In this document: positions 3,669 through 64,000 of the stretch, piece after piece
How positions within the stretch are numbered: the first letter of the stretch is position 1
Layout: each line of letters starts with the position of its first letter
NCBI GenBank assembly: GCA_964016885.1
Contig: OZ024751.1
Coordinates: 45,198,001 to 45,262,000 of the forward strand
Length of the DNA stretch: 64,000 bases
Direction: 5' to 3'
Source of the DNA: Eledone cirrhosa
Lineage: Eukaryota
Translations under genes and position numbers: made by a program
The notes under the pieces: generated by a model
Told to the model about the DNA's origin: nothing
The model's input: the letters and a program-made list of their open reading frames with translations, nothing else
The model's database searches: none

Positions 3669-4021
3669 GGAGGCACATGGCTTAGTGGTTAGAGCATTGG
3701 CCTTGCAATCGAAAGGTTGTGAGTTCAATTCTCAGACCAGGTGATGTGTTGTTTCCTTGAGCAAGACACTTTATTTCACATTGCTCCAGTTTACTCAGCT
3801 GTAGAAATGAGATGAGATGATAGGGACTGGGGTCCCTGTCATTCCACTGTAAAGTGGACGTGTAGGCGCCACGGAAAAAAAGCACCCAGTACTCACTGTA
3901 AATGAGGTTGGTGTTAGGAAGGGCATCCAGCTGTAGAAATCAAGCCAGAATCAGTTCCCGTCCCACCCTTGCAAGCAGGGAAAAGCGGACGTAAAAATGA
4001 TGATGATGATGAAAATGATGA
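3669..4021 (+). mobile_element. tRNA-headed SINE with RTE-type (GAT)n tail
   Basis: Head ggaggcacatggcttagtggttagagc...gagttcaattctc; tail ccttgcaagcagggaaaagcggacgtaaaaatgatgatg; near-identical inverted copy at 35090-35434. Confidence 0.8.
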
Positions 4022-4029
4022 TATATATA

Positions 4030-4101
4030 TAGCTGAGCGTAGTTTCGATCTATAGACCACTGGGTTATGGGCCCAACACGCTACCACTGCACCACTCTGT
4101 T
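4030..4101 (-). pseudogene. Initiator tRNA-Met (CAT) pseudogene
   Basis: Reverse complement AACAGAGTGGTGCAGTGGTAGCGTGTTGGGCCCATAACCCAGTGGTCTATAGATCGAAACTACGCTCAGCTA is colinear with eukaryotic tRNA-iMet (GGG/CCC anticodon stem, ATCGAAA T-loop). It has two acceptor-stem mismatches, a T-stem mismatch and no poly-T terminator. Confidence 0.85.
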
Positions 4102-6323
4102 ACCAACACACACACACATATATATATATATGAGAGAGAGAGTGTTGGTTTGTAGTAATTCATTAATTTTGAAGTTGGGTAAGATTACGTCTCTCTCTCT
4201 ATATATATATATATATTATATATGTGCATGTGTGTGTATGTATATAATCGTCATCATTTAATGTCCATTTTTCCATGCTTTCAAACATTAGACAGGTTGT
4301 CACATTATGAGTCAAGTCAGATCTGGAGATTGTGTCTTGCTCATACAGGTCTGTATTTTGGCTTAGTTTCTACACCTGGAAGCTCTTCCTAATTCCAACT
4401 ACTTTACAGGGTTGACTGGCTGATTTTTCATTGTGTCACCAACACGACCACTTTACAGGGTTAACTGGCTGGTTTTTCATTGTCACCAAAACGACCATCT
4501 TAAAATATTTATATAAGATATAGCTGGGAAAACAGATGTTAAACTATAATGATTTCTAGTATAGGCACAAGGCTAGCAATTTAGGGGGAGGGGAAAGTCG
4601 ATTAAATCGACCCCCAGTGCATGACTGGTACTTTATTTTATCGACCCAGTAAGGATGAAAGGCAAAGTTAACCTCGGCCGGATTTGAACTCAGATCATAA
4701 AGGGTCGTAACTCTATGCTGCAAAGCTTGGCATCGAACTCTCTACCGATACTGCCAAAATGATGTTGATATAGATATCACCATCAATTTTAGGGTCTCTC
4801 TTCCACTCACAACATTGCTCCATCTCTGAGGTTTAGTGTTTTGAAATCAATTCTAATCACGTTTGCTACTAATATATAAATAACATATACAACCATTACC
4901 ATATAAAGATATTACAACCCTTACCACTAATATATAATATATTACAACCATTACCACTAATATATATATTAGAATCCTTACCCCTAATATATAAAATAAG
5001 ATATTACAACCCTAACTCCCAATATATAAACAACAAACTTAATATATTTCTATCTGACAAGAAACAGTTATCTCCAGAAAAACTTCTATGGTAGTCCTTA
5101 TTAGAACATGGGTTTTTGTGTGTGATTCTATGATTTCATCTTATCTTTGATAGTTCCATTTACATTTTCTCATAATCTCCTAAAATATTCTGTATTTTAG
5201 AATCAACTAGATGTCTTTATATTATTTGAAAAAGGTCATATATCATTGTATGTAAAAACTCAATATCACATTTTTATATATTTACATATGTTTAATAAGC
5301 ACAAGAAAGTAGATATAAAATAGTGAGGATAATGATAGTGAAAGAAACTGCATTTTTTTTTTTTTTTTTTTTTTTTTTTGCACAAATTGACCTCATTAAA
5401 TCGTGTTATCTTATTTGATTTGGTTAAATCTTGTTTCAATAACTTTATTTTTAAAATGTTCATCAAATAAAGATTTGTTTTTCTCCCTTTAGTAACTTAA
5501 CTAGTTAGTTAGAATAACTATGGAAATAAATTCAAAATTATTTGGCACTCTCATATATCTCAAGGGATATATTGGCACTATTTTTTCACTATTTTTTAAC
5601 TTCACGTTGGCACTATTTGTAGATGTTTTGGTGTAAATAACTCCAACACTATTTGATAGTTTCATGAATGTTTATCTTCTAGCAATGATTCAAGGTATCT
5701 TTCAGTATTATTGATAGTTATTGAAATAATTGAACTGCAAATTTTGTATAAATAAATTCCCAACAAACTAAGGTTGTTTCATTTTCATGGGGTTTTTTAT
5801 GAATAGTGTAAGTTTTAGTTTCGCCTCTATAAATTTTAAACTCGATACTTATGTAAAGTAATCAATATTAATTAGATTTAGGCTCATCATCATCATTATC
5901 ATCGTTTTATGTTGGCATGGGTTGGATGGGTTATCACAGTCTGAGATAAAATGGGCTGAAGAACTGTGGCTTGCTCATGTTTCATTCTTGGCATGGTTTC
6001 TATGGCTGGAAAACTTTCCTAATGCCAAACATGTGTTACATTGTAAAATGCTTAGTGCAGGAATGGATGAGGGGAAATGTGTTTGTTGGAAAATTTTACT
6101 AGATGAGAAATTGATTTCAATTAAATAGAATTTTACATGGGCCTAGTTACCATATATACTTGAATATAAGCCGACCCCTATTTAATGTCTGAGATATAAG
6201 CAACAATCCAAACCCCATTTATAAGCCGAGGCAGGTAATCAACACATTGTTTAGATGGTGCAGTTTTGAAATCCTCATGAGTGGAAGAATATACTTATGA
6301 AGTTTTAATATTTTGATATTTAA

Positions 6324-7317: not shown

Positions 7318-9232
7318 TGGCCTAGCAAGTCCAGTTCCCTAAACTGGCCAAGCAAGTCCACCACCTTAAACTGGCCAAGCAAGTCTACTACCTTAAACTG
7401 GCTTAGCAAGTCCAGTTCCCTAAACTGGCTTAGCAAGTCCAGTTCCCTAAACTGGCTTAGCAAGTTCCGTTCCCTAAACTGGCTTAGCAAGTCCAGTTCC
7501 CTAAACTCGCTTAGCAAGTCCAGTTCCCTAAACTGGCCAAGCAAGTCTACTACCTTAAACTGGCCAAGCAAGTCTACTACCTTAAACTGGCTTAGCAAGT
7601 CCAGTTCCCTAAACTCGCTTAGCAAGTCCAGTTCCCTAAACTCGCCTGGCAAGTCCAGTTCCCTAAACTCGCCTGGCAAGTCCAGTTCCGTAAACTCGCC
7701 TGGCAAGTCCAGTTCCGTAAACTCGCCTGGCAAGTCCAGTTCCCTAAACTGGCTTGGCAAGTCCAGTTCCCTAAACTGGCTTGGCAAGTCCAGTTCCGTA
7801 AACTGGCCTGGCAAGTCCAGTTCCGTAAACTCGCCTGGCAAGTCCAGTTCCGTAAACTCGCCTGGCAAGTCCAGTTCCCTAAACTCGCCTGGCAAGTCCA
7901 GTTCCCTAAACTCGCCTGGCAAGTCCAGTTCCCTAAACTCGCCTGGCAAGTCCAGTTCCCTAAACTCGCCTGGCAAGTCCAGTTCCCTAAACTCGCCTGG
8001 CAAGTCCAGTTCCCTAAACTCGCCTGGCAAGTCCAGTTCCCTAAACTCGCCTGGCAAGTCCAGTTCCCTAAACTCGCCTGGCAAGTCCAGTTCCCTAAAC
8101 TCGCCTGGCAAGTCCAGTTCCCTAAACTCGCCTGGCAAGTCCAGTTCCCTAAACTCGCCTGGCAAGTCCAGTTCCGTAAACTCGCCTGGCAAGTCCAGTT
8201 CCGTAAACTCGCCTGGCAAGTCCAGTTCCCTAAACTGGCTTGGCAAGTCCAGTTCCCTAAACTGGCTTGGCAAGTCCAGTTCCGTAAACTGGCCTGGCAA
8301 GTCCAGTTCCGTAAACTCGCCTGGCAAGTCCAGTTCCGTAAACTCGCCTGGCAAGTCCAGTTCCCTAAACTCGCCTGGCAAGTCCAGTTCCCTAAACTCG
8401 CCTGGCAAGTCCAGTTCCCTAAACTCGCCTGGCAAGTCCAGTTCCCTAAACTCGCCTGGCAAGTCCAGTTCCCTAAACTCGCCTGGCAAGTCCAGTTCCG
8501 TAAACTGGCCTGGCAAGTCCAGTTCCCTAAACTGGCCTGGCAAGTCCAGTTCCGTAAACTCGCCTGGCAAGTCCAGTTCCGTAAACTCGCCTGGCAAGTC
8601 CAGTTCCCTAAACTCGCCTGGCAAGTCCAGTTCCCTAAACTCGCCTGGCAAGTCCAGTTCCCTAAACTCGCCTGGCAAGTCCAGTTCCGTAAACTGGCCT
8701 GGCAAGTCCAGTTCCCTAAACTCGCCTGGCAAGTCCAGTTCCCTAAACTCGCCTGGCAAGTCCAGTTCCGTAAACTCGCCTGGCAAGTCCAGTTCCCTAA
8801 ACTCGCCTGGCAAGTCCAGTTCCCTAAACTCGCCTGGCAAGTCCAGTTCCCTAAACTCGCCTGGCAAGTCCAGTTCCGTAAACTCGCCTGGCAAGTCCAG
8901 TTCCCTAAACTCGCCTGGCAAGTCCAGTTCCCTAAACTCGCCTGGCAAGTCCAGTTCCCTAAACTCGCCTGGCAAGTCCAGTTCCCTAAACTGGCTTGGC
9001 AAGTCCAGTTCCGTAAACTGGCTTGGCAAGTCCAGTTCCGTAAACTCGCCTGGCAAGTCCAGTTCCCTAAACTCGCCTGGCAAGTCCAGTTCCCTAAACT
9101 CGCCTGGCAAGTCCAGTTCCGTAAACTCGCCTGGCAAGTCCAGTTCCCTAAACTCGCCTGGCAAGTCCAGTTCCGTAAACTGGCTTGGCAAGTCCAGTGC
9201 TCTAAACAGGCCTAGCAACCCAGTACCCTAAA
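7318..9232. repeat. 27-bp tandem satellite, about 70 copies
   Basis: Unit tccagttccctaaactcgcctggcaag with a few variant positions; produces the 645-aa and 637-aa ORFs on opposite strands. Confidence 0.97.
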
Positions 9233-10235
9233 CAGCCATTGCATTTTGAGTAAAATCTAAACAAGGGATCTCCAAACTTTTTAGATGATCAACATCGCCC
9301 CTCTTTCTTCCTCAACTCTTTCATAAGCCCCCACACATGTACAAAAATAAATAAATAAATAACAGATCAGTAAACACAATAAGAAATAAAATAGACAATC
9401 AAGACTAATTATATATCAATCTAAATAAATCTATAAAACAAATTGTACTATTTTATATATTTACAATTTTTTGTTTACAAATGTCAGCTTCTGGCTCAAA
9501 AGTTCACTCAATCTGGGTTGTCCCATTGACCTCTGGAGCAGAGTATAATATCGACCTAGTTTAAATTGTCAGTTTCTAATAAGTTTTTCTTAGAATTTCT
9601 GTAAAATTGTTGATCTTAGGGAGGACATCCAGCTGTAGATATCATGTCAAAAATGGAGTGTATGAGCAACCCATGCACCCCACCCCCACCGGTCTGTCTA
9701 GTCTTAGATTGTGACAACCTATCCAACCCATGCAAGTATGAATAGATGTAAAACTGATGATGATGATTCCTCAGTTTAAAGATATGGCCTCTGGCTTTGG
9801 AAATATTTGATAGAGAAACAAGGTTGATTAAACATATTGCATTTAGGGCGGCACTTAGATTGAAACTTGTGTGTCCATATCTATAGTTAATGTCAATCAA
9901 TATAGTACATTTCTAATGTTCTATCTTCTTGACAAAGGCCATGGTATTTACCTTTTTAACTTTCTTCTCATTCATATTCTTTTCCATGTCCAACCATGTA
10001 CGACTGAAGATCTATCTTAGTTGACTGCTAGTCTGTATCAATGGCAACCTCAGAGACAACACAGATACTCAATATTTAACATTTACTGAGAAAATTTGGA
10101 AAATACTATTTATTACATGTAGGAGAGGTTGTCAATGCCTCCCCATCCACATCAGCAGCAGCAGCTACTGCTAATTCCATTCCCAACATAGCAAAATAAC
10201 TTTAGAGCTCAAATATTTTATTTTTGTGTTCATAC

Positions 10236-12700: not shown

Positions 12701-14787
12701 ATCATCATCATCATCATCATCATCGTTTAACGTCCATATTCCACACTTGCATGGGTTTGGACGGGAGTTTTCCCACTTGCGGCAAGAGTGGTTGCCTTGC
12801 TTGCATAGGACTGTCTGGCGGGTTGTCTATGGCTGGATGCCCTTCCTAACACCAACCACATTTAAAGTGTGGAACTGGGAGGTTTTTACCATGTTACCTA
12901 CACGGCCACATTACAGCGTGGACTGTGTGTTTTTTTTGTCGTGACACCTACACGACCTCATTTGTTTCGGCCTGGATGTTGTGGTACCAACATAACTTTA
13001 CATTGAAAGGGGCGGTGTGGATGGGGTGAGGGTAGTGGGACGGGGGTGTATTTTGTTAGAGGTGCCTACTGACTGTAGTAGGTTTTACTTTGTATTTAGG
13101 TAAGGCGGGTCTTCTCTATTACTGTGTACCGCCAAAGATCTCGGTCCAGTGACATTGTCTTGGAGAGGTGTAAGTGTGTGAGGTCGGGATTTATCAAGCC
13201 GTCCCAGGTTTTTCTGGGTCTGCCTACTCCGTGGCTACCGTCTATTTTTATTGCCCTGCACTTTTTTATACAGCTGTCGTCTTTCATGCGCATCACGTGA
13301 CCATACCAACGTAGCCTTCTCTTGAGTAAACAACATCTGATCCCTCTTATTTCTAATTTTTTCCTTAGTTCGTTAATGCTTTGCCGTTCACGTATATTAC
13401 TATTATACATCCAGCGGAGCATGCAAGCTTCGTTCCTCTCTAGTCTGCGTATATCCTTTGCACACAATGCCCAAGTCATCATACAGCCTGCCTTTCATTT
13501 TTAGGGAGAACCCTTTAGCGGCTAATAGTGGTATAAGCTCTCTGAACTTTTTCCATCCTGTTCTGACTCTAACTACTGTACTTTCAGAGCACCCTCCCCC
13601 ACTGCTGATTTTGTCACCCAGGTAACGGAAGCTGTCCACTATTTCTATAGAACCCTCTGTGCAATTGAAAGAGCTAGTATTCTGTGGGCACTTGCTGCTA
13701 CTTATTGCACCAGAGCACCGGCCACATGTAAAATCTATGTTCTTAGTTAGCTTACCTGTGATCCCACTACATCTTTTATGTACCCATACTTTGCATTTGG
13801 GACATAAAATGGAGTTTCTACCTACTCCTTTCCTACACACTGAGCATGGCCATTTCCCGGATGGGACCGGCACCCTATTTTCCTTCATACAGACTAGAAC
13901 TTTAGTCTTAGACAGATTAATTTTAAGGCCTTTTGATTCTAGGCCGTGCTTCCATGTTTGGAATTTCTTCTCTAGTTCGGCCATTGATTCAGCTATGAGC
14001 GTTAGATCATCTGCGTATAGGAGTTCCCATGGGCAGCCAGTCTTGAACTCCACTGTTATAGCCTGAAGGGCAATAATAAATAGTAGGGGGCTAAGAACAG
14101 AGCCCTGATGAACACCAACTTTTACGCTAAACTCTTCACTATATTCGTTGTTAATTCTAACCTTGCTGACTGTTTCTTTATACATGGCTTGTATAGCTCT
14201 CACAAGCCATTCATCAACACTTAGTTTTCTAAGAGCCCACCAGATAATGGAACGGGGGACTGTGTCGAAGGCTTTCTCCAAGTCGACAAAAGCTAAGTAT
14301 AGGGGTTTACTTTTAACTAGGTACTTCTCCTGTAGTTGTCGTACAATGAAAAGAGCGTCTGTGGTACTTTTGCCTGACACAAACCCGAACTGCATTTCAT
14401 CTAGATCAATTCTCTCTCTGATTAGTTGCGCTATTACTTTTTCCGTGACCTTCATCACTCACCTGGTCGATTAATTTAATGCCTCTATAGTTACTCCTAT
14501 CTAGGGCATCTCCTTTACCCTTGTAGCAGTTAATGATGATGCTGCTACGCCAGTCCTTCGGAACAACCCTATTCTGTATGACTTGGTTTACTATCCGGGT
14601 GACCATGGTGTGTCCCACCGTTCCAGAGGCTTTCAGCATTTCAGCAACTATTTCCGAAGGCCCAGCCGCCTTACCCGTCTTCATATCTTTGATTGCCTTA
14701 CTTATTATACTACCTTCGACTAACACTGCTGGTCCCTCTATTGGGTCGATGTGGGGGAGACTGTCTTTCTCCCATTTATTCTCCTCA
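12701..14787 (-). mobile_element. 5'-truncated, frameshifted RTE-clade LINE (RT domain, Cys/His finger, 3' UTR, (GAT)n tail)
   Basis: Three overlapping ORFs (14406-14855, 13403-14458, 13096-13482) carry NYRGIKL, QFGF, FVDLEKAFD, GVHQGSVLSPLLF, LYADD and the RTE C-terminal RLRWYGHVMR...GRPRKTW. Confidence 0.95.
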
Positions 14788-14965
14788 AAATATATATATA
14801 TATACATAGTGTTAAAACAATCAAATTTTAGTTTAGAACATTTATTTGCATACAATTGTTTCTTCCAGAGGGAAATCTGGAATCATCAGTCATACTGGTA
14901 ACCGGCTAGTACTTAGTACTACCCTCCATATTTATAATTGTATTAAACATATATAATTTTCTTAT

Positions 14966-15694: not shown

Positions 15695-15917
15695 CATCGA
15701 CAAAGTTCCTAAGATCTCGTCTCCAGTTTTAGTGATCCATGGCACCGATGATGAGGTGATTGATTTCTCGCACGGCCTTGCTATATATGAACGGTGTCCT
15801 AGAGCAGTGGAACCATTGTGGGTAGAAGGTGCAGGCCATAACGATGTCGAACTCTATGGACAATATCTTGAGAGACTCAAACAGTTCATCCACACAGAAC
15901 TAGATTATCTATATTAG
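15695..15917 (+). CDS. ABHD17: Alpha/beta hydrolase domain-containing protein 17 (depalmitoylase), last coding exon
   Basis: Polypyrimidine tract and tttcAG acceptor at 15693-15694, phase 2; [65 protein letters not shown] matches the ABHD17 C-terminus with catalytic Asp and His. No upstream exons found in the window. Confidence 0.95.
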
Positions 15918-38608: not shown

Positions 38609-39370
38609 TCATCTATTTCTTCTGTCCTCATTTCTATAACCCCTGTCTCTGTATTTAGAATTGAAATTCTCTCTCCCCCTTTCTCTACTTCTGTAGCTCC
38701 TGTCAGAATTCCCACCTCTGTCCCCTCTATCTCGATAATCTCTGTTATCACCCCTAGAATATTCTCCAAACCTGTTATCTTTGTATTGGAAGTCCCTATT
38801 CTTCTGGTGGTAACTGTCCTTGTAGTCCCATTTCTTATAACCACTGCTACTATCTGAGCTGACAATTATGGGTTTTTTAAAGGGCCGGTCCCTCCCACCA
38901 AATCGTAATTGTCCTGACTCTTTATTGCCTCCAAAGCCCCCTCCAAGTCTACGAGGAACCCAGTTTTTCAAAACTCGTTCCCGTTCAAAGTCAACGAATA
39001 TTTCGGAGCCATCCAACTGAGCTTTATTGGCTTGAATGAAGGCTTTACGTGCAGAATATTCCTCCACATATTCTATAAACCCATAACAGCGTGTGAACCC
39101 TGTAACAATATCACGGACAAGACGAAGCTGTTGAATTTGACCGAATTCACTGAAACATTTTCGGAGGCTGTTTTCATCAGTTTTAGGGTTGAGTCTTGAG
39201 GTAAATATTGTCTTTCCGGGATCACCAGCAACCTGTTTGTTAGGTTTATATTTACAGTTCAGTGCTCGTATTATGCCGTGGTCATGTGCTAACTCATCAG
39301 TTCCATCAATGCTCCCTGCCATTAGGGGGTCATAGACATGAGCAATAGGAGACCAAAGATCCTCAGCCAT
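38609..39370 (-). CDS. SNRNP35: U11/U12 small nuclear ribonucleoprotein 35 kDa protein
   Basis: MAEDLWSPIAHVYDPLMAGSIDGTD...HDHGIIRA; RRM with GDPGKTIFTSRL and VRDIVTGFTRCYGFIEY; WVPRRLGGGFGGNKESGQLRFGGRDRPF; R/D/S-rich tail. An acceptor AG (plus 39379-39380) lies 8 nt before the ATG, implying a separate 5' UTR exon. Confidence 0.96.
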   Translation of the reverse strand: MAEDLWSPIAHVYDPLMAGSIDGTDELAHDHGIIRALNCKYKPNKQVAGDPGKTIFTSRLNPKTDENSLRKCFSEFGQIQQLRLVRDIVTGFTRCYGFIEYVEEYSARKAFIQANKAQLDGSEIFVDFERERVLKNWVPRRLGGGFGGNKESGQLRFGGRDRPFKKPIIVSSDSSSGYKKWDYKDSYHQKNRDFQYKDNRFGEYSRGDNRDYRDRGDRGGNSDRSYRSRERGRENFNSKYRDRGYRNEDRRNR

Positions 39371-40859
39371 TGCTTCTCCTGAAACAAAACAAAACAAAAC
39401 AAATATATATTACTTGTTTCTACTTTTTGCACAAGGCCAGCAATTTGAAGAAGCTGGGAGATGGGGAAAGTCGATTAAATCGACCCCAGTGTGCTACTGG
39501 TACTTTTATCAGCCCTGTAAAGATGAAAGGAAAAGCTAACCTCGGCGAGATTTGAACTTAGAATGCAAAGGGCTGTAACTATATGCCACAAAGTACGGCG
39601 TCCGATGCTCTACTGATACTGCCAATCCACCGCCATCACAAATATAAATTAATAAAAACACGTAAAACAAGGGCATCCAGCTGTAGAAACCAAATCAGTC
39701 CTGTATGAGCATGACATGGTCACCTGACCTAGCATTCCCCACAACAGGACAACTCGTCTAACCCATGCTAGTGTAGAAAAATGGACGTAAAATGATGATG
39801 ATGAATTAAAACAAATAAATAAATAAAAATATACAAATAGGAAAAAGCATGAGTAGGACAGGTATTCCAATGTTAAGGAACTAGAACAAGATTTTGTCAT
39901 CCAACTCATCAACACACAGATATGCATAACCCAATGAGGGAGTCTTTATGAGAAGTCACCCAACTTGTTAGAAATAGCAGTCATGTCACACTCAAATAAC
40001 ACATTTTTTTTAATTTCAAAATTAATGTATATATAAACCCATAACACTTGATGGAGCTACAGAGGTACTGCAGTGATATATGGTATTTCTTGGGCATTTA
40101 AAACTTGGTGGAGCCTGTCCCCTCCTAGGGTCTGAACACAGCCAATTTCTTCCAGCAAGAGAAAGAGAGAGGGAGAGAAGGGGAGCGAGAAAGACATATA
40201 ATGAAGAATCAACTTCGGTACAAGACTAGTATTTATTTTTATCAACCTCGATATTATAAAAGACAAGGTTGACTTCAGAGTACATTGAGCTAGAACAAAC
40301 AGCAAAATAGTCTATCTGACTGTCAATGCACATCGAAATAGGATGGACAATATTTGACTTTGCCATAGTTAAATCAAAAGTTGTTTCCCTTTAAACAAGG
40401 TTTGCATGATACATGTAATAATTGTTTCTACCTTTGGCACAGGGCCAGCAATTATCCTAGTATGTTACTGATGCTTTATTTTATCGACCCCGCAAGGATG
40501 AAAGGCAAAGTTAACCCCAGCGGGATTTGAATAATAGTCGAGAGTTGGCGGAGAGTTGATTTGCACCTTTTCACCCAACTTTAATCCTTCATATGCTTCA
40601 CATGTCCATACCAGCACAATCTTCTTTCTTGCACACTACATCTGATTCCTCTCATATCCAGTTTTTCTCTCAGCTCATGTGTGCACTCTCGTTGATGCAC
40701 ACAAATACATCCAGTGTAGTATACAAGCCTCCTTTTTTCCACTACCATACAACATACTGGGATTGATATGATTAGCTAAAGGCCATAAAGGTGTTTCCCC
40801 AGCATAGCAAGCCAAACTTTAAGAGTAATATACCTAATTATAGCGAAAAACAGAGCAGA

Positions 40860-48849: not shown

Positions 48850-50007
48850 ATGCCGTCAACCCCCACTGAAGTTCCAGAAGCTCCCGGGCCAATTAATGTC
48901 GCTAACATTGCAGACCAAGCTAGTGTGAGCCACCAACATGGCAATGGTGAATTTGAATTAGATAAGAATGAAGAACATTTATCAGTAACAAAAGAAACTT
49001 GGAATGGAGACACTTCTGGCAAATCTAATGATTCTGGAGGATGTCAAGCAGAAATTAGTACCTCTCAGTTAAATTATTCTAGTAACGCTACTGTAACTAT
49101 AGGTAAAACTGCACAAGAACTTACAGCCGCACTTGGCCCTTCAGAAATGTTAATCAAAGCTCCAGATAGTGTATTGAACTCTCATCAATCTACCAGTGAT
49201 GAAGCAGTGATTGAGAAACCAGGTACTCTTGAACCTTCAGAAATGTTAATCAAAGCTCCAGATAGTGTATTGAACTCTCATCAATCTACCAGTGATGAAG
49301 CAGTGATTGAGAAACCAGGTACTCTTGAACCTTCAGAAATGTTAATCAAAGCTCCAGATAGTGTATTGAACTCTCATCAATCTACCAGTGATGAAGCAGT
49401 GATTGAGAAACCAGATACTCTTGAACCTTCAGAAATGTTAATCAAAGCTCCAGATAGTGTATTGAACTCTCATCAATCTACCAGTGATGAAGCAGTGATT
49501 GAGAAACCAGGTACTCTTGAACCTTCAGAAATGTTAATCAAAGCTCCAGATAGTGTATTGAACTCTCATCAATCTACCAGTGATGAAGCAGTGATTGAGA
49601 AACCACCAGAATTGTCGTTAAACCAATCAGTAGAAGCAGATGTGACGAAAGAAGAAGAACAACAACCACAAGTAAACGAAGAAGAAGAACAACAACAACC
49701 GCAAGTAAAAGAAGAAGAAGTAATACAAAATGAAGTAATATGTTCAGAGGAAAGTGGAGCTGCTCACGGTGATGTAAACATTTTACAGACTAAAGAAGTT
49801 TCAGTTGAATCTGGTAAAGATAGACTGTCAGAAAGTAAAGAGAATGCTGTGAGCCAAGATCAAAATACTGATTCACATGCTCAAGTTAAAGATAGAGGAG
49901 ATATTGAGGAATCAAAAGTTGGTGAAAAAGTGAACAATGTTTCAGAGACTGTTGAAGACTTTCTAGAAACTACGGATATTTTAGGCAATGGATTGCTTTT
50001 GAAAACG
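48850..50007 (+). CDS. FKBP8: FKBP8 coding exon 1 (acidic N-terminus with 5 x 32-aa repeats)
   Basis: Acceptor ttccAG 48830-48831, ATG 48850, ends TDILGNGLLLKT|GTAAGT (FKBP8-type DILGNGLL motif); 1158 nt, phase 0. Confidence 0.88.
49138..49605 (+). repeat. 96-bp coding tandem repeat, about 4.9 copies
   Basis: ccttcagaaatgttaatcaaagctccagatagtgtattgaac...gagaaaccaggtactcttgaa; peptide PSEMLIKAPDSVLNSHQSTSDEAVIEKPGTLE. Confidence 0.97.
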
Positions 50008-55990: not shown

Positions 55991-56065
55991 TCTTGGAAAT
56001 GGTCAATTATTGCTGGTAGTTTGGTCGTGGTATTACTTTCATTAGGTGTTGCGTACTTCCGTTAG
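55991..56065 (+). CDS. FKBP8: FKBP8 coding exon 10 (C-terminal tail-anchor helix and stop)
   Basis: ttcAG|SWKWSIIAGSLVVVLLSLGVAYFR*; WKW plus hydrophobic helix plus basic terminus, as in FKBP38. Confidence 0.92.
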   Translation, partial: SWKWSIIAGSLVVVLLSLGVAYFR

Positions 56066-57925: not shown

Positions 57926-59727
57926 TTAATAGCAACCTGTTTCAACAAAATAATTTTTTTCTATCAAAATAATCAAACAAGTTGGGCATACATTCCCTTA
58001 TCAAAGTGGACAGTTAACAAAAAAAAAAAATTGCTTTGAAGCAGCTTATGTTAAGTTACCATTTTTAAAACTTAAAATGTGATTTATTAAATATTTATAT
58101 CGACTGGCCAATAAATAAGACTTAAAATGCTTAAAATGACCAGTATGTTGTGCTACCATTACCCCAAAGCAAGACTGACAATTGCTTGGCCTGTTGTAGG
58201 TGTGAGTTCATATCACACACATGATAATATCCACTTTTTATGTCAAACTTGTTGAACTATTTACATTGTAAAGACAAAAACACCCATGTTCAAGCAGCTT
58301 TCGTTAAGTTAACATTTATTTAATGCTCTGTGAGGATGATTGATATATATGTGTGAGAGGAAGATAGTCAAATACGGAGGCCTGACCAACCACTTCCTCT
58401 TTGCACTGGTCTCAGTCAAGACCTCTGGCATCCTTGATCCCCGCACTGCTGATTTTCTCTATAAAGTCAGAAAGACAGCAGTCTGCTTGAGGACAGCCTT
58501 GTGATGAGTGGTGGTTGCTGCAGCGGGTGTCTCTAGCAATTCACTCCCTCCCTTCTTTTCTTTCGTTAATTGATCCTTTATTTTTTTGTCTTGCTTTTTT
58601 GTTTCCCATTTATTATATACTGCTCAATAATTGTTATCCAATGTCTGTAATTTGAAGGCGATTTTGCTGCTAATGTTAAGTGTTGATTCACTGCGCCTTC
58701 TGTTGTTTCCCTAAGAAAAAACAAGATATTTAAACTGTTGTCGTTATTTTTTAAGGATAAGAGGAAACCCTATACGTGGCTTTCACTTTTTCAAATAACA
58801 CGAACAATTGTCAAATTTGTCATTGCAATTCTGTCATTTCAGAAGACGAAAGAAAAATAAGTCCAGTAACTTCTAAAATTTGAGAGTAGTTTATGGTTAA
58901 CAGTGGAGACAACTCTGGAACTATTTCAGTAGATATAATTTGAAAATGGTTATATTTTATTGGATAAAGAATTAAAAAATATATAGACTGTTGGTTAGAA
59001 ATAAAAAAAAATCTGTGCTCATCGCCTTTATAGACGTTCTCTAATTAAAAGTTGTGCATAATCAAAAGAGTACATTGTATTTAATCAGTTTGAATCATTG
59101 AAATTTGTTGGGAGGAAATAGGAGCAAGAAGGGAGATAAGTCAGATTGAAGATTTGAGAGTAAGCATGGAAAATGGAAGTGAAATACGGTTGATTAATGA
59201 GAGGAAATACAGGGGGATTAAATGGATTTAGAGCTCTTGCTAATTCCTAGTGTAACAAACAACGGTATCTCACGACCATGTCACTTAATGAAAATGAAGG
59301 CGCGTAGACAGACTTACAGTCATAATGTCGTGGGTTCGATTTCCAGTATACTCAGCTGAAAATAAGTACCAGCAATAGCTGGAGGTTCAGCCCAGCGATA
59401 GGCTGGCGTCATGCCCAAGGATGGGGGTTGTAATCGCAGTTACTTAATGCCACGGAAATTGAGATAGCAGCCTAATGAGCCTCAGGGTTCGAGACACGAA
59501 CTAAAGTGGTTATTCACTTGACCTGCTAGAAATAGTTGCGAAGCTAAATTCCCAACCCATGCGTCTTAAAGTACACACTAAAGAATTTATATATCCTTAA
59601 AAATAGACGTGATGGTCACAGCTGGAATGTCTTTAATGGATAACTTGAAGTCAAATCAACGCTGCCATCACATATACGAGATTGTCAATTTCCTGCAACT
59701 TCAGTTTTTTTGTTTATATATATATCT

Positions 59728-60010
59728 AAAGTCTGTCTTAAGCCAGAAGGCTCATTTGGCCGGTGCTTATCCCGGTTTCATGGCGTGAAGCGACTGAGAG
59801 TACAAGACCCCCCCCCCCCCCGGACAGGACGCCAGTCCATCGCAGTCCAACCTCCAGCTATTGCTGGTACTCATTTTCAGCTGAGTAAACTGGAGCAACG
59901 TGAAATAAAGTGTCTTGCTCAAGGAAACAACACATCACCCGGTCCGAGAATTGAACTCACAACCTTTCGATTGCAAGCCTAATGCTCCAACCACTAAGCC
60001 ATGCGCCTTC
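59728..60010 (-). mobile_element. tRNA-headed SINE (same head as 3669, different tail)
   Basis: Reverse complement begins gaaggcgcatggcttagtggttggagcattaggcttgcaatcgaaaggttgtgagttcaattctcggaccggg and ends agacagacttta. Confidence 0.8.
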
Positions 60011-60169
60011 ACACACACACAGTTTTTTATGGTATCGAAACATATTTAATGTGTATGGTAATCGTGTTTCCCTTTAAATAATGGATCTTAGTTCAGAACC
60101 TCGACAATTCAAATTCAAAAGATATATTTAGAGAGAAAAAGTCATATATCGTTTGAGAAACACTGTTTT

Positions 60170-60252
<83 letters not shown>

Positions 60253-60294
60253 CACGATATTAACAAATGGAAACTATATTTATAAAACCATATT

Positions 60295-60359
60295 TATTTC
60301 ATTATACATATTTCAAGGATACCAAGTTAAATTATGGTATGCCTTCATCAGACAAAATA
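60295..60359 (-). ncRNA. Type I hammerhead ribozyme motif (mirror copy of 61030-61094)
   Basis: Exact reverse complement of the plus-strand motif in the right arm. Confidence 0.72.
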
Positions 60360-61029
60360 CAATATATACCAGTTTTATAAATAAACATTGACGTACCCTT
60401 TTAAAATGCAACCGTTACTTTTGGAAGACATCAGGACTGGTATACCTTCATCAGACAAAATACAATATATACCAGTTTTATAAATAAACATTGACGTACC
60501 CTTTTAAAATGCAACCGTTACTTTTGGAAGACATCAGGACTGGTATACCTTCATCAGACAAAATACAATATATACCAGTTTTATAAATAAACATTGACGT
60601 ACCCTTTTAAAATGCAACCGTTACTTTTGGAAGACATCAGGACTGGTATACCTTCATCAGACAAAATACAATATATACCAGTTTTATAAATAAACATTGA
60701 CGTACCCTTTTAAAATGCAACCGTTACTTTTGGAAGACATCAGGACTGGTATACCTTCATCAGACAAAATACAATATATACCAGTTTTATAAATAAACAT
60801 TGACGTACCCTTTTAAAATGCAACCGTTACTTTTGGAAGACATCAGGACACCTGATGTCTTCCAAAAGTAACGGTTGCATTTTAAAAGGGTACGTCAATG
60901 TTTATTTATAAAACTGGTATATATTGTATTTTGTCTGATGAAGGTATACCAGTCCTGATGTCTTCCAAAAGTAACGGTTGCATTTTAAAAGGGTACGTCA
61001 ATGTTTATTTATAAAACTGGTATATATTG

Positions 61030-61094
61030 TATTTTGTCTGATGAAGGCATACCATAATTTAACTTGGTATCCTTGAAATATGTATAATGAAATA
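61030..61094 (+). ncRNA. Type I hammerhead ribozyme motif
   Basis: tattttgt-CTGATGA-aggcatacca-taatttaact-tggtatcctt-GAAA-tatgta-TA^-atgaaata: stem I 8 bp (2 GU), stem II 10 positions with one C-C mismatch, quasi-palindromic stem III, AUA cleavage triplet. Confidence 0.75.
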
Positions 61095-61224
61095 AATATG
61101 GTTTTATAAATATAGTTTCCATTTGTTAATATCGTATATCTACTCCAAATACTTGTCGAGTGCTTTATATCAGTTATAAAAATATTTGCTTGTTGTATCC
61201 CAACAATTTAAATAGAACTTTTGC

Positions 61225-61257
<33 letters not shown>

Positions 61258-61261
<4 letters not shown>

Positions 61262-61567
61262 TAATTAAAAGTTTAACAAGGTTCAATGAATAAAGTTTCA
61301 CAATAGATTATAGGCACTCTACAGAGAGGTTTTCTGGAGTTATATTAATAAATATAGACATTCATGTGATCAAATATATTTTATTATACATATTTCAGAG
61401 ATACTGAGCTATTTCAACAGCTAAATTATAACCATCAACATAGTCAAGGTATGTCAGGCATCAACTTATTTTATCTGATGAGGACGTACTGTTGAAATAG
61501 CTCAGTATCTCTGAAATATATATAATAAAATATATTTAATCACATGAATGTCTATATTTATTAATAT
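61258..61567. repeat. Fold-back element: 79-bp inverted arms plus tail
   Basis: 61342-61420 is the near-perfect reverse complement of 61489-61567; flanked by TA-rich tracts. Confidence 0.9.
61467..61532 (+). ncRNA. Type I hammerhead ribozyme motif
   Basis: tattttat-CTGATGA-ggacgtactg-ttgaaatagct-cagtatctct-GAAA-tatata-TA^-ataaaata: perfect 8-bp stem I, stem II 10 positions with one C-C mismatch, palindromic stem III AUAUAUAU. Confidence 0.8.
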
Positions 61568-61838
61568 TTTGAAGCAATATATATATAGTTATAGATATAT
61601 ACACATATATTTATGAATATATACACACACGACTCTGAAAGGTGTATTATTAGTAAATGTTTGTTCCATACTTTGATTTTCAGAACTATACGATTCAATA
61701 TATCCATCCTTTCCTACACATAAAAAAAAAGATAGTAAGGTAGAGACTTGGTTGCTATCTTTAGCAGACAGAGTGACCTCGTAAAGTCTCCCCTTTGACT
61801 AAAAAAAAAAAAAAATGAAGAGATTTAAATTACACCGA

Positions 61839-61894
<56 letters not shown>

Positions 61895-62099
61895 GAAAAT
61901 AGGAACAGATGTTGCCACCAAACGTCATTTGATTAACTATGTAGCAGATATATCGATGGAAATAAGCTTGCATTACATATAAATTGACCACTTGGTGAAT
62001 ATATTTAAAAGGAAGAATCATACTTATTATTTTAAAAAATATATATTAAATGAAATGGATTTATTGAAAATATATATTTAGCGTAAATATTTAGATATA

Positions 62100-62300
62100 T
62101 ACGGGGATCGGCTGACTATGAAGGAGTGACGCTAAAGCTGTATGACGTTAGAGCTGTGAAATCTTGAATGTATTAATCTCAACTCTTCTTATTAGTAACT
62201 GCATTGTTTCTTTCCAAGGACTATGTTGAAAAATAAACCTCATTAGCTTACTCCATGAGAGTGTCTTGGTCTGCCTATGAATTTTAAGCCGACCCTCGTA
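62100..62300. mobile_element. Mariner-like MITE
   Basis: TAcggggatcggctga ... aagccgaccctcgTA with internal sequence shared with 110-274 and 24750-24960. Confidence 0.7.
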
Positions 62301-63044
62301 AACAGCAAGCTGTTTCTATTGGCTTTAGATCTTGGAACAATCTTTTAAATATTTAAATAATTTGTCGACAAAGAGAAAGTCTATATTACATCGTTTATGT
62401 TTTAAAAACAAAATAAGTTTAAGGGATATAATAAGTGCTATACTATTTTTTTTTATAAAAAAAAATTAAACTACATTAAAACCTCAGCATTCGATCTTTT
62501 TCACTGTAATGGAAAAAACGCAACGATTAAACGGAAAAGTGAAGTGTTACCAGAAAAATCATCTACATTTTATAAAGAGCTATTATTGCTAGAGTAGTCC
62601 AATCCTTCTCACTCCTGTTAGAGGAACTCCTCCCTGGTTGACCTCCACTGCTTTGTTTGGTTTTGGCCATGTTAGGGGTGTAGCTGTTTCACCACACTTG
62701 GTCAATTGCGGGCTATTTAAACCCTAGTTGGATGTACGTTGACTCCGAAGAGTTCATCCGCCCTTTTAACAGCTCTTGCTTTTTTTGTACTGCTGGGGAT
62801 TCCACTTACTCTCCTCACCAGACCAAGGTTTGGTTGGGGAGCTAGTTTAGTCGCCAACTACTTAACTATGAAGCAGATTGTACTGGTTTACATGGTACCA
62901 GTAGCAGGCAGAAGCCTGACCTGACTCCCAGAGTTGTATGACATTTTAATTTATTTTTTTGTGGTCATATAATCTTGTGTTGAAAGAGTCAGTGTAAAGA
63001 TAAGGTTACTTAGTACAGAAAACACGCATCACCGGGCAATGAGA

Positions 63045-63832
63045 CTTTACAGGGTTGCTAGACATGCTAGAAATAACAGCCAGATGTCCATAAAATTACA
63101 CCCCACCGTCTTTATAAAAGGAAAAGCATATTAAATAAAGTTTTCATGTCTCAGGGAACCCCTACAAAATATTATTAGATACCCCGCCGAGGTTCACTTT
63201 GCTTTTCATCCTTACGGGATCGATAAAATAAAGTACCAGTAATGTAATGAGTATTTGCTGGCCTTGTGCCAAAGTAGAAACAATTATTAATCTCTAATCC
63301 TTTTATAATTTTATCGTAGTTCACGTCGTAAACATAATATATTTGTTTCCGATAACTGGTTTAAAGAAATCCTGATCCTCTTTTTGTCAAATTTATTGGT
63401 AATGCAAAAAAGAAAAGCAACAAAAAACAACCATACTGTTCCTAAGTCCACACATTAACTTTGCCTTTTATCCTTACGGCGTCGATAAAATAAAGTACCA
63501 GTAATGCACCGAGTATTTATTGGCCTTGTGCCAAAAGTAGAAACAATTATCTTATCACTGTTTCTCGCGGAACCCTAAGATTCCGGAGAACACCGGTCGA
63601 GAAACGCTACTCTACAGGGTTGCTCGACATGCTAGAAATAGCAGCCAAATGTCCATAAAGTCACACATCCCATCGTCTTAATAAAAGGAAAAGCATATTA
63701 GATAAAGTATACCCCCCAGGTAATGAGACTACAGGGTTGCCATAAATGCTAGAAATAGCAGCCAGATGTCCATAAAATCACACATCCCACCGTCTTAATA
63801 AAAGGAAAAACATATCAGATAAAGTATAGCCC
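63045..63832. repeat. Three about 100-bp direct repeats with two interposed SINE-like pieces
   Basis: tacagggttgct...atgctagaaatagcagccagatgtccataaaatcacac...aaaggaaaagcatatta near 63048, 63613 and 63730. Confidence 0.8.
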
Positions 63833-64000
63833 TAGATCTACTAGGTCCTCTCGTCGACTCATGTCCGTATAAATATATAAATCTACAGATACCTGTGAGT
63901 CTGTACGTATTTGATACAACCATACACAAGTAACCCTAACCAGCATCAAAATAAATTAATTCGGTAAATCTGACGAAATATTTTCTCATTTCAAAATCTA

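Follow-up and report, generated by a model that had tools for sequence, protein, structure and literature searches.

We conclude that the palindrome at positions 60254–61135 of a 64-kb stretch of DNA from the octopod Eledone cirrhosa (contig OZ024751.1; hereafter the window) very probably originated, as judged from its sequence, as a recent non-coding insertion of a Penelope-like retroelement (PLE). The best explanation as a whole, to which we give a probability of about 0.75, is a young insertion made in trans that combines truncated copies joined head to head, re-annealing in stem II of the hammerhead, and slippage. According to this explanation, a PLE enzyme acting in trans would have laid down two 5′-truncated copies of the element's 3′ end (a pseudo-LTR with its hammerhead), joined head to head within a (TA)n target with their 3′ ends facing outward. 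One arm would have been begun at the far reverse-transcription start, tail included, and the other at the near start. The overall form of the insertion is already known, and it is the junction between its repeat units that is odd.

The original prediction of a palindrome with five units on the left and two on the right is borne out, with the left arm at 60849–60254 on the minus strand and the right arm at 60851–61135 on the plus strand. The features of this element, and of a second element beside it, are as follows.

60171–60252, unstranded: target at the left end, (CA)n followed by (TA)n, the latter at 60210–60252
60254–60849, minus: left arm, a 5′-truncated copy ending at the short 3′ end, with four inner units and an outer copy
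60295–60359, minus: the left arm's complete minimal type I hammerhead, with cleavage predicted after 60303
60436–60847, minus: four identical 103-nt inner units of the left arm, with the stem I 5′ strand, CUGAUGA and the stem II 5′ strand only
60848–60850, unstranded: palindrome centre, two of its three bases continuing the left arm as in the junction and one lying outside both arms
60851–60953, plus: inner unit of the right arm, with the same sequence as the four on the left
60945–60953, plus: junction 9-mer with a derived T, the exact reverse complement of 60913–60921 within the unit
60954–61135, plus: right-arm outer copy to the short 3′ end, running 49 nt beyond the predicted cut
61030–61094, plus: complete minimal type I hammerhead of the right arm, with palindromic stem III at 61078–61085 and predicted cut after 61086
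61136–61224, plus: one-sided extension of 89 nt, a candidate PLE tail with modest likeness to the extension of the second element
61225–61257, unstranded: (TA)n separating the two elements
61247–61263, plus: 17-bp direct repeat, a candidate target-site duplication flanking the second element, other copy at 61577–61593
61264–61576, unstranded: second, diverged head-to-head element, with arms at 61342–61420 (minus) and 61489–61567 (plus) that differ by 2 mismatches in 79
61467–61532, plus: the second element's complete minimal type I hammerhead, with cleavage predicted after 61524

The inner units are identical in all five cases, and the two outer copies carry C instead of T at unit position 95 and depart from the 103-nt unit at position 102, where they enter the remainder of the hammerhead. 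It had further been proposed that the units hold only the 5′ half of the hammerhead and that only the outermost copies are complete. Both statements agree with our analysis, since CUGAUGA is present in the units and GAAA is absent from both strands, junction included, and a full minimal type I hammerhead lies at the outer end of each arm. The palindrome had also been described as folding perfectly around a 3-nt loop. The 285 mismatch-free pairs exist, but in an outer register in which 60254–60538 pairs with 60851–61135 across a 312-nt spacer. The perfect run around the 3-nt loop at 60848–60850 is 197 bp long and is ended by the C/T variant, so that a 285-bp stem with a 3-nt loop requires three units to be looped out. 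Point differences between the copies numbered 0 in 864 compared bases (95% bounds of 0.35% per site and of 1.05% for arm versus arm), which implies that the insertion is young or has been homogenised. Target-site duplications are optional in PLEs, and a 9-bp candidate for the first element (60244–60252 with 61225–61233) is weak, the 9-mer occurring 32 times in the window.

On the basis of their architecture, we class the two elements as PLE-derived insertions that are truncated or non-autonomous. Inspection by eye of the frames in and near the 970-bp element revealed no RT or GIY-YIG reading frame, and because this frame is missing we do not class the element as an autonomous PLE. In the first element, the hammerheads on opposite strands lie 687 bp apart. 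Truncated PLEs are described as carrying paired minimal hammerheads on opposite strands, with 100–700 bp between them (PMC4209133), and the observed spacing fits this range and so supports a PLE origin. PLE insertions are reported to be 5′-truncated and to favour (TA)n as target, often with a truncated copy joined in inverted orientation to the 5′ end and a tail of 30–40 bp at one end (PMC8557442), and head-to-head palindromes are given as the common PLE form (PMC3846280). In vitro, according to the account in PMC11167929, the PLE enzyme cleaves AT-rich DNA on both strands, extends each of them and uses uncut RNA as template, two internal start sites defining the tail. Of the arms examined here, one continues for 49 nt and the other for 138 nt beyond the predicted cut, which fits an uncut-RNA template with two start sites as in that account.

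The locus shares with endonuclease-containing PLEs (Penelope/Poseidon, Neptune, Nematis and Hydra) a minimal type I hammerhead close to the 3′ end, an inverted 5′-truncated copy, a one-sided extension that is a candidate tail, an AT-rich or (TA)n target and the presence of adjacent copies. Unlike insertions of these PLEs, it lacks coding sequence and its extensions are about 80–90 nt long rather than 30–40. Moreover, ordinary PLE partial tandems keep their 3′ end and vary at the 5′ end, whereas the units found here are cut at the 3′ side, inside stem II, and have one common 5′ end. Naiad PLEs share the (TA)n target and the tandem or inverted form, and Naiad remnants are reported from cephalopods (PMC8557442), but Naiads are without a canonical hammerhead and the complete core found here sets the element apart from them. 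We found no related loci in the phage collection or in prokaryote genomes. The literature covered, which left out most subscription journals and supplements, yielded nothing on octopus hammerhead elements or half-hammerhead tandems.

The window contains 42 CUGANGA sites, three of which pass a minimal type I hammerhead descriptor, all in these two elements (61038 plus, 60351 minus and 61475 plus). The descriptor was formulated once the motif had been seen, with 100 shuffled windows as its control, and a single descriptor site occurred in one of these 100. Set against this control, three passes among 42 sites indicate that the hammerheads are not due to chance. Each has a stem I of 8 bp, a stem II of nine pairs with a C-C mismatch and a palindromic stem III of 8 nt, and the catalytic core (CUGANGA, GAAA and UH) is present together with helices I and II. 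Positions 15.2–16.2 and loop 3 are palindromic, forming an 8-nt self-complementary stretch with a duplex energy of −2.2 kcal/mol. All 20 hammerhead pairs are intact in both distinct sequences; eight of the pairs vary, three of them on both sides. As controls for covariation, slid registers pair at 32–60%, and 66 of 500 shuffles equal the score, two distinct sequences allowing no better. A model built from the three hammerheads (two of them distinct) and run over the window returned the hammerheads themselves, the half copy in the second element (32.7 bits) and 11 weak matches at E >1. A cryptic hammerhead spanning the junction was considered and rejected, its best model score being 13.9 bits (E 3.8) with GAAA absent.

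An Rfam scan of the whole window at gathering score gave one match, a tRNA, and none to hammerhead families, and a scan of 58000–64000 at E up to 10 gave 25 matches, none of them hammerheads. The G10.1–C11.1 closing pair, which is highly conserved but not absolute, is missing, its place being taken by A-U then G-U in the first element and by G-U then G-C in the second. Stem I has a pair probability of 0.03 in the monomer fold, and folding z-scores for the hammerheads, the unit and the 3′ ends are unremarkable (−1.5 to +1.1). We counted the lack of an Rfam match, the missing G10.1–C11.1 pair of the first element and the stem I probability against hammerhead activity. Hammerheads of the minimal class in PLEs are reported to cleave poorly and as dimers (PMC4209133; PMC6765202), and PLE hammerhead cleavage is said to be aided by protein (PMC11167929). 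In common with the PLE minimal hammerheads described by Cervera and de la Pena (2014, PMC4209133), those of the present locus have an intact CUGAUGA and GAAA-UH core, a long helix II and a short palindromic helix III, the last of which implies dimeric or protein-assisted cleavage, here a prediction. Unlike the hammerheads described there, helix II consists of nine pairs with a conserved C-C mismatch and is closed by A-U or G-U instead of G10.1–C11.1, and helix I consists of eight pairs, mostly A-U. The complete plus-strand hammerheads at 61030–61094 and 61467–61532 are 437 nt apart and their stem III palindromes are cross-complementary. In principle, a mixed hammerhead dimer could arise in a transcript begun at the palindrome centre, though the second hammerhead would be masked by its own inverted arm. 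Elsewhere in the window, 15126–15095 (minus) holds a hammerhead-like core with CUGACGA, a 4-bp stem II and GAAA with a short palindrome, about 100 nt from (TA)n. It failed the descriptor because its stem I is poor, and is probably a decayed PLE end from a different family.

The second element lies about 130 bp from the first and carries one complete hammerhead and one 3′ half. Identity between the elements from hammerhead to tail is 74% (126 of 171 columns of a composite), and the short 3′ end of the second element is at most 3 nt from the homologous position in the first. Its inverted arm begins within the stem II 5′ strand, 3 nt short of loop II. The 17-bp repeat, whose 11-nt core occurs only twice in the window, both times flanking the second element, would set the left limit of that element at 61264 and place a 78-nt one-sided extension (61264–61341, minus) inside the insertion. 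In both elements the extension sits on the shorter arm. The two extensions align collinearly with a score matched by 27 of 5000 shuffles. Over 10000 shuffles, the corresponding counts were 237, 221 and 149 under three scorings and 5677 under strict local scoring, and 110 of 12486 stretches of the window score as high as the extension pair. This collinear likeness (p about 0.005–0.02, and null under one of five scorings) is suggestive only. Tail-like likeness was absent from the control flanks (1322/5000 and 1644/5000 shuffles), and the likeness of the 5′ part of the unit to the centre of the second element was not significant (4330/5000 and 2554/5000 shuffles).

The second element also informs the reading of the junction, having C at the position that matches unit position 95; since this C is common to it, the T of the inner units is derived. 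The chance of the junction 9-mer is about 0.02 if three bases are free, and 0.38 if the palindrome centre explains two of them. Both arms start at most 2 nt from the junction phase. The unit junction had been placed at the loop of stem II and ascribed to repeated template switching at the hairpin, or to slippage. Its location in stem II stands, but the exact site may be the variant base, 7 nt ahead of loop II, where there is a microhomology of 6 nt. Switching at stem II is likewise upheld, as the junction and the inverted arm of the neighbouring element both break in the 5′ strand. Its repetition is not, since one switch followed by copying and slippage accounts equally well for the array. The original prediction had recognised neither the ordinary head-to-head PLE form of the palindrome nor the candidate tail or the second element.

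In the explanation that we favour, a polymerase at the 5′ limit of its template would re-anneal through a 6-nt ATACCA match in the stem II 5′ strand and recopy 103 nt at least once during insertion. Copying would carry the junction to the opposite arm, and slippage between identical units would yield five units versus two. To this particular sequence of events, with re-annealing in stem II and recopying during this insertion, arm-to-arm copying, and slippage setting the counts, we give an even chance. A single locus is compatible with more than one order of junction, inversion and expansion.

The junction could instead have arisen by DNA rearrangement after insertion, if a palindrome with one copy on each arm gained it by a replicative quasi-palindrome template switch, followed by arm-to-arm copying and slippage. 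Quasi-palindrome correction is described as a known type of mutation, and the junction 9-mer does make an imperfect inverted repeat of the unit perfect; moreover, the 204-bp DNA hairpin predicted at the centre is very stable (−238 kcal/mol). However, this route would require several successive events and yet leave no point mutation in 864 bases, and we consider it unlikely. A similarly improbable scenario is that a source locus already contained the 103-nt array, formed when a tandem PLE derivative underwent microhomology deletion or duplication, and that the arms are truncated copies of the transcript of this array. The identical junctions would be simply accounted for, microhomology deletions are reported as frequent in PLE copies (PMC3846280) and non-autonomous PLEs are reported to form multicopy head-to-tail insertions (PMC8557442). 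Both 5′ truncations would nevertheless have to fall within 2 nt of the phase of the 103-nt unit, which we infer would happen in about 5% of cases if truncation were random, and the 64-kb window holds no further copy of the array.

It is also conceivable that the PLE RT jumped from the 5′ end of its template into stem II at every one of the five junctions (four cycles plus one), in telomerase- or DRT2-like repeat addition, the last 7–9 nt being lost when the cDNAs were joined. Under such reiterative copying, the same junction in both arms, the unequal counts and the common start phase would follow without an extra step, and the 6-nt direct match that borders the unit resembles an alignment region. 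An RNA template that begins at the junction would fold into a 9-bp helix closing the 5′ part of the unit, with the template's 5′ end near the re-entry site and stem II kept, but this fold is no stabler than those of shuffled sequences (z 0.30), and the first 7–9 nt of the supposed template are missing from both terminal units. PLE RTs are described as sister to telomerase (PMC8557442), and DRT2, which produces 120-nt concatemers, is the nearest precedent in unit size (PMC12039810). The likeness to telomerase and DRT2 is one of working only and consists of identical units bordered by a short direct match, at a size similar to the 120-nt DRT2 unit. Unlike those systems, the locus contains no dedicated template RNA or enzyme and gives no sign that the repeats arise in a programmed way. 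Moreover, the case rests on a single locus, the second element is without such repeats, and the literature searched yielded no instance of repeat addition by a PLE enzyme. We therefore think it quite doubtful that a PLE RT with repeat-addition processivity, recopying a defined 103-nt RNA segment and realigning each time on the 6-nt match in stem II, left the four plus one inner units in the genome as a fossil of its activity.

An assembly artefact, affecting the inversion or, more likely, the unit count, is less probable still. Perfect identity between copies would be expected of one, and complex PLE insertions are reported to trouble assemblies (PMC8557442). On the other hand, the symmetry ends at the homologous short 3′ end, the flanks are unique on both sides and the neighbouring element of the same build has 2 mismatches in 79. 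The assembly appears sound, in that the window is free of N, a 1.9-kb array of a 27-bp repeat (71 copies with 5% variation) has been resolved in it and the frame stays open across nine exons of the upstream gene. A fold-back read, which would neither end at the homologous 3′ end nor have unique flanks, is an unlikely source of the palindrome, and we give the unit count as assembled. Finally, the presence in an animal genome of short, PLE-derived tandem units next to a type I hammerhead might suggest a non-LTR retrozyme array giving rise to a 103-nt circular RNA. This reading is largely refuted, because GAAA occurs in none of the five inner units and the junction-spanning score is as low as given above. 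Retrozymes are reported to have monomers near 300 bp (PMC7229834) and to require that no fewer than two consecutive units contain a complete hammerhead (10.64898/2026.07.22.740005), and units of 103 nt with half a ribozyme cannot self-cleave into monomers or circles.

The nearest gene upstream of the palindrome encodes FKBP and TPR domains, nine of its exons giving an open frame that ends at 56065, and its domain layout suggests FKBP8. The large exon of this gene contains a 96-bp tandem repeat (49138–49605; 4.9 copies, 99% matches) that stays in frame, each unit encoding 32 residues, and is a recent expansion of a coding repeat. Placement of the palindrome inside an intron of this gene was rejected, as the frame ends at 56065. 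The palindrome is located about 4.2 kb downstream of the stop codon, with six AATAAA hexamers in between, and may be intergenic or lie within a long 3′ UTR. Scanning for bacterial promoters gave results at chance level, which is uninformative for animal DNA. Just left of the palindrome are an inverted pair of SINE-like repeats (59342–59482 and 59748–59894; 76% over 150 nt), which is possibly another source of dsRNA, and a tRNA-like head (59944–60001).

The insertion most likely has no function for its host. A transcript of the palindrome had been expected to form 285 bp of dsRNA, and the fold prediction agrees, with a helix of 285–289 bp from either strand, on the condition that the locus is transcribed through. 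In such a read-through transcript, the hammerhead helices have a predicted pair probability of 0.000, and read-through would thus produce a long hairpin in which the ribozymes are silenced and which would be a substrate for ADAR. Loci with near-perfect hairpins are reported to be unusually many in octopus, where hyper-editing is high (PMC5625713), and by analogy RNA editing of the locus is plausible but ordinary. The locus illustrates one origin of the long near-perfect hairpins that, according to the same source, are common in octopus and track with hyper-editing.

We regard the locus as a clean, young octopod example of a known form of PLE insertion, whose unmutated junction appears to record the template switches of the enzyme. 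The steps that produce tandem and inverted PLE structures are still described as undefined (PMC8557442), and since two adjacent elements are both broken in the stem II 5′ strand, a genome-wide test is simple. If the repeats were the product of reiterative synthesis, they would have a bearing on the origin of telomerase repeat addition. True repeat addition would amount to telomerase-like behaviour in the sister retroelements of telomerase, with stem II as the realignment site and a role for the hammerhead beyond cleavage.

Several other features were observed in the window. An intronless, single-exon RRM gene at 38612–39373 (minus) resembles that of the U11/U12 snRNP 35K protein, and the best of 1613 matches to its product is the Octopus sinensis U11/U12 35K protein, at 86% identity. 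At 13096–14882 (minus), upstream of an alpha/beta hydrolase exon at about 15700–15917 (plus), lies a broken non-LTR retrotransposon that has an RT domain (RVT_1, E 6e-29) and a PHD-like domain. The region 7320–9233 is a 27-bp minisatellite (70.9 copies, 95% matches) in which several frames are open for more than 500 codons. A weak tRNA match (31.1 bits) with a CAU anticodon is present at 4030–4101 (minus), between inverted repeats at 3847–3951 and 4355–4458.
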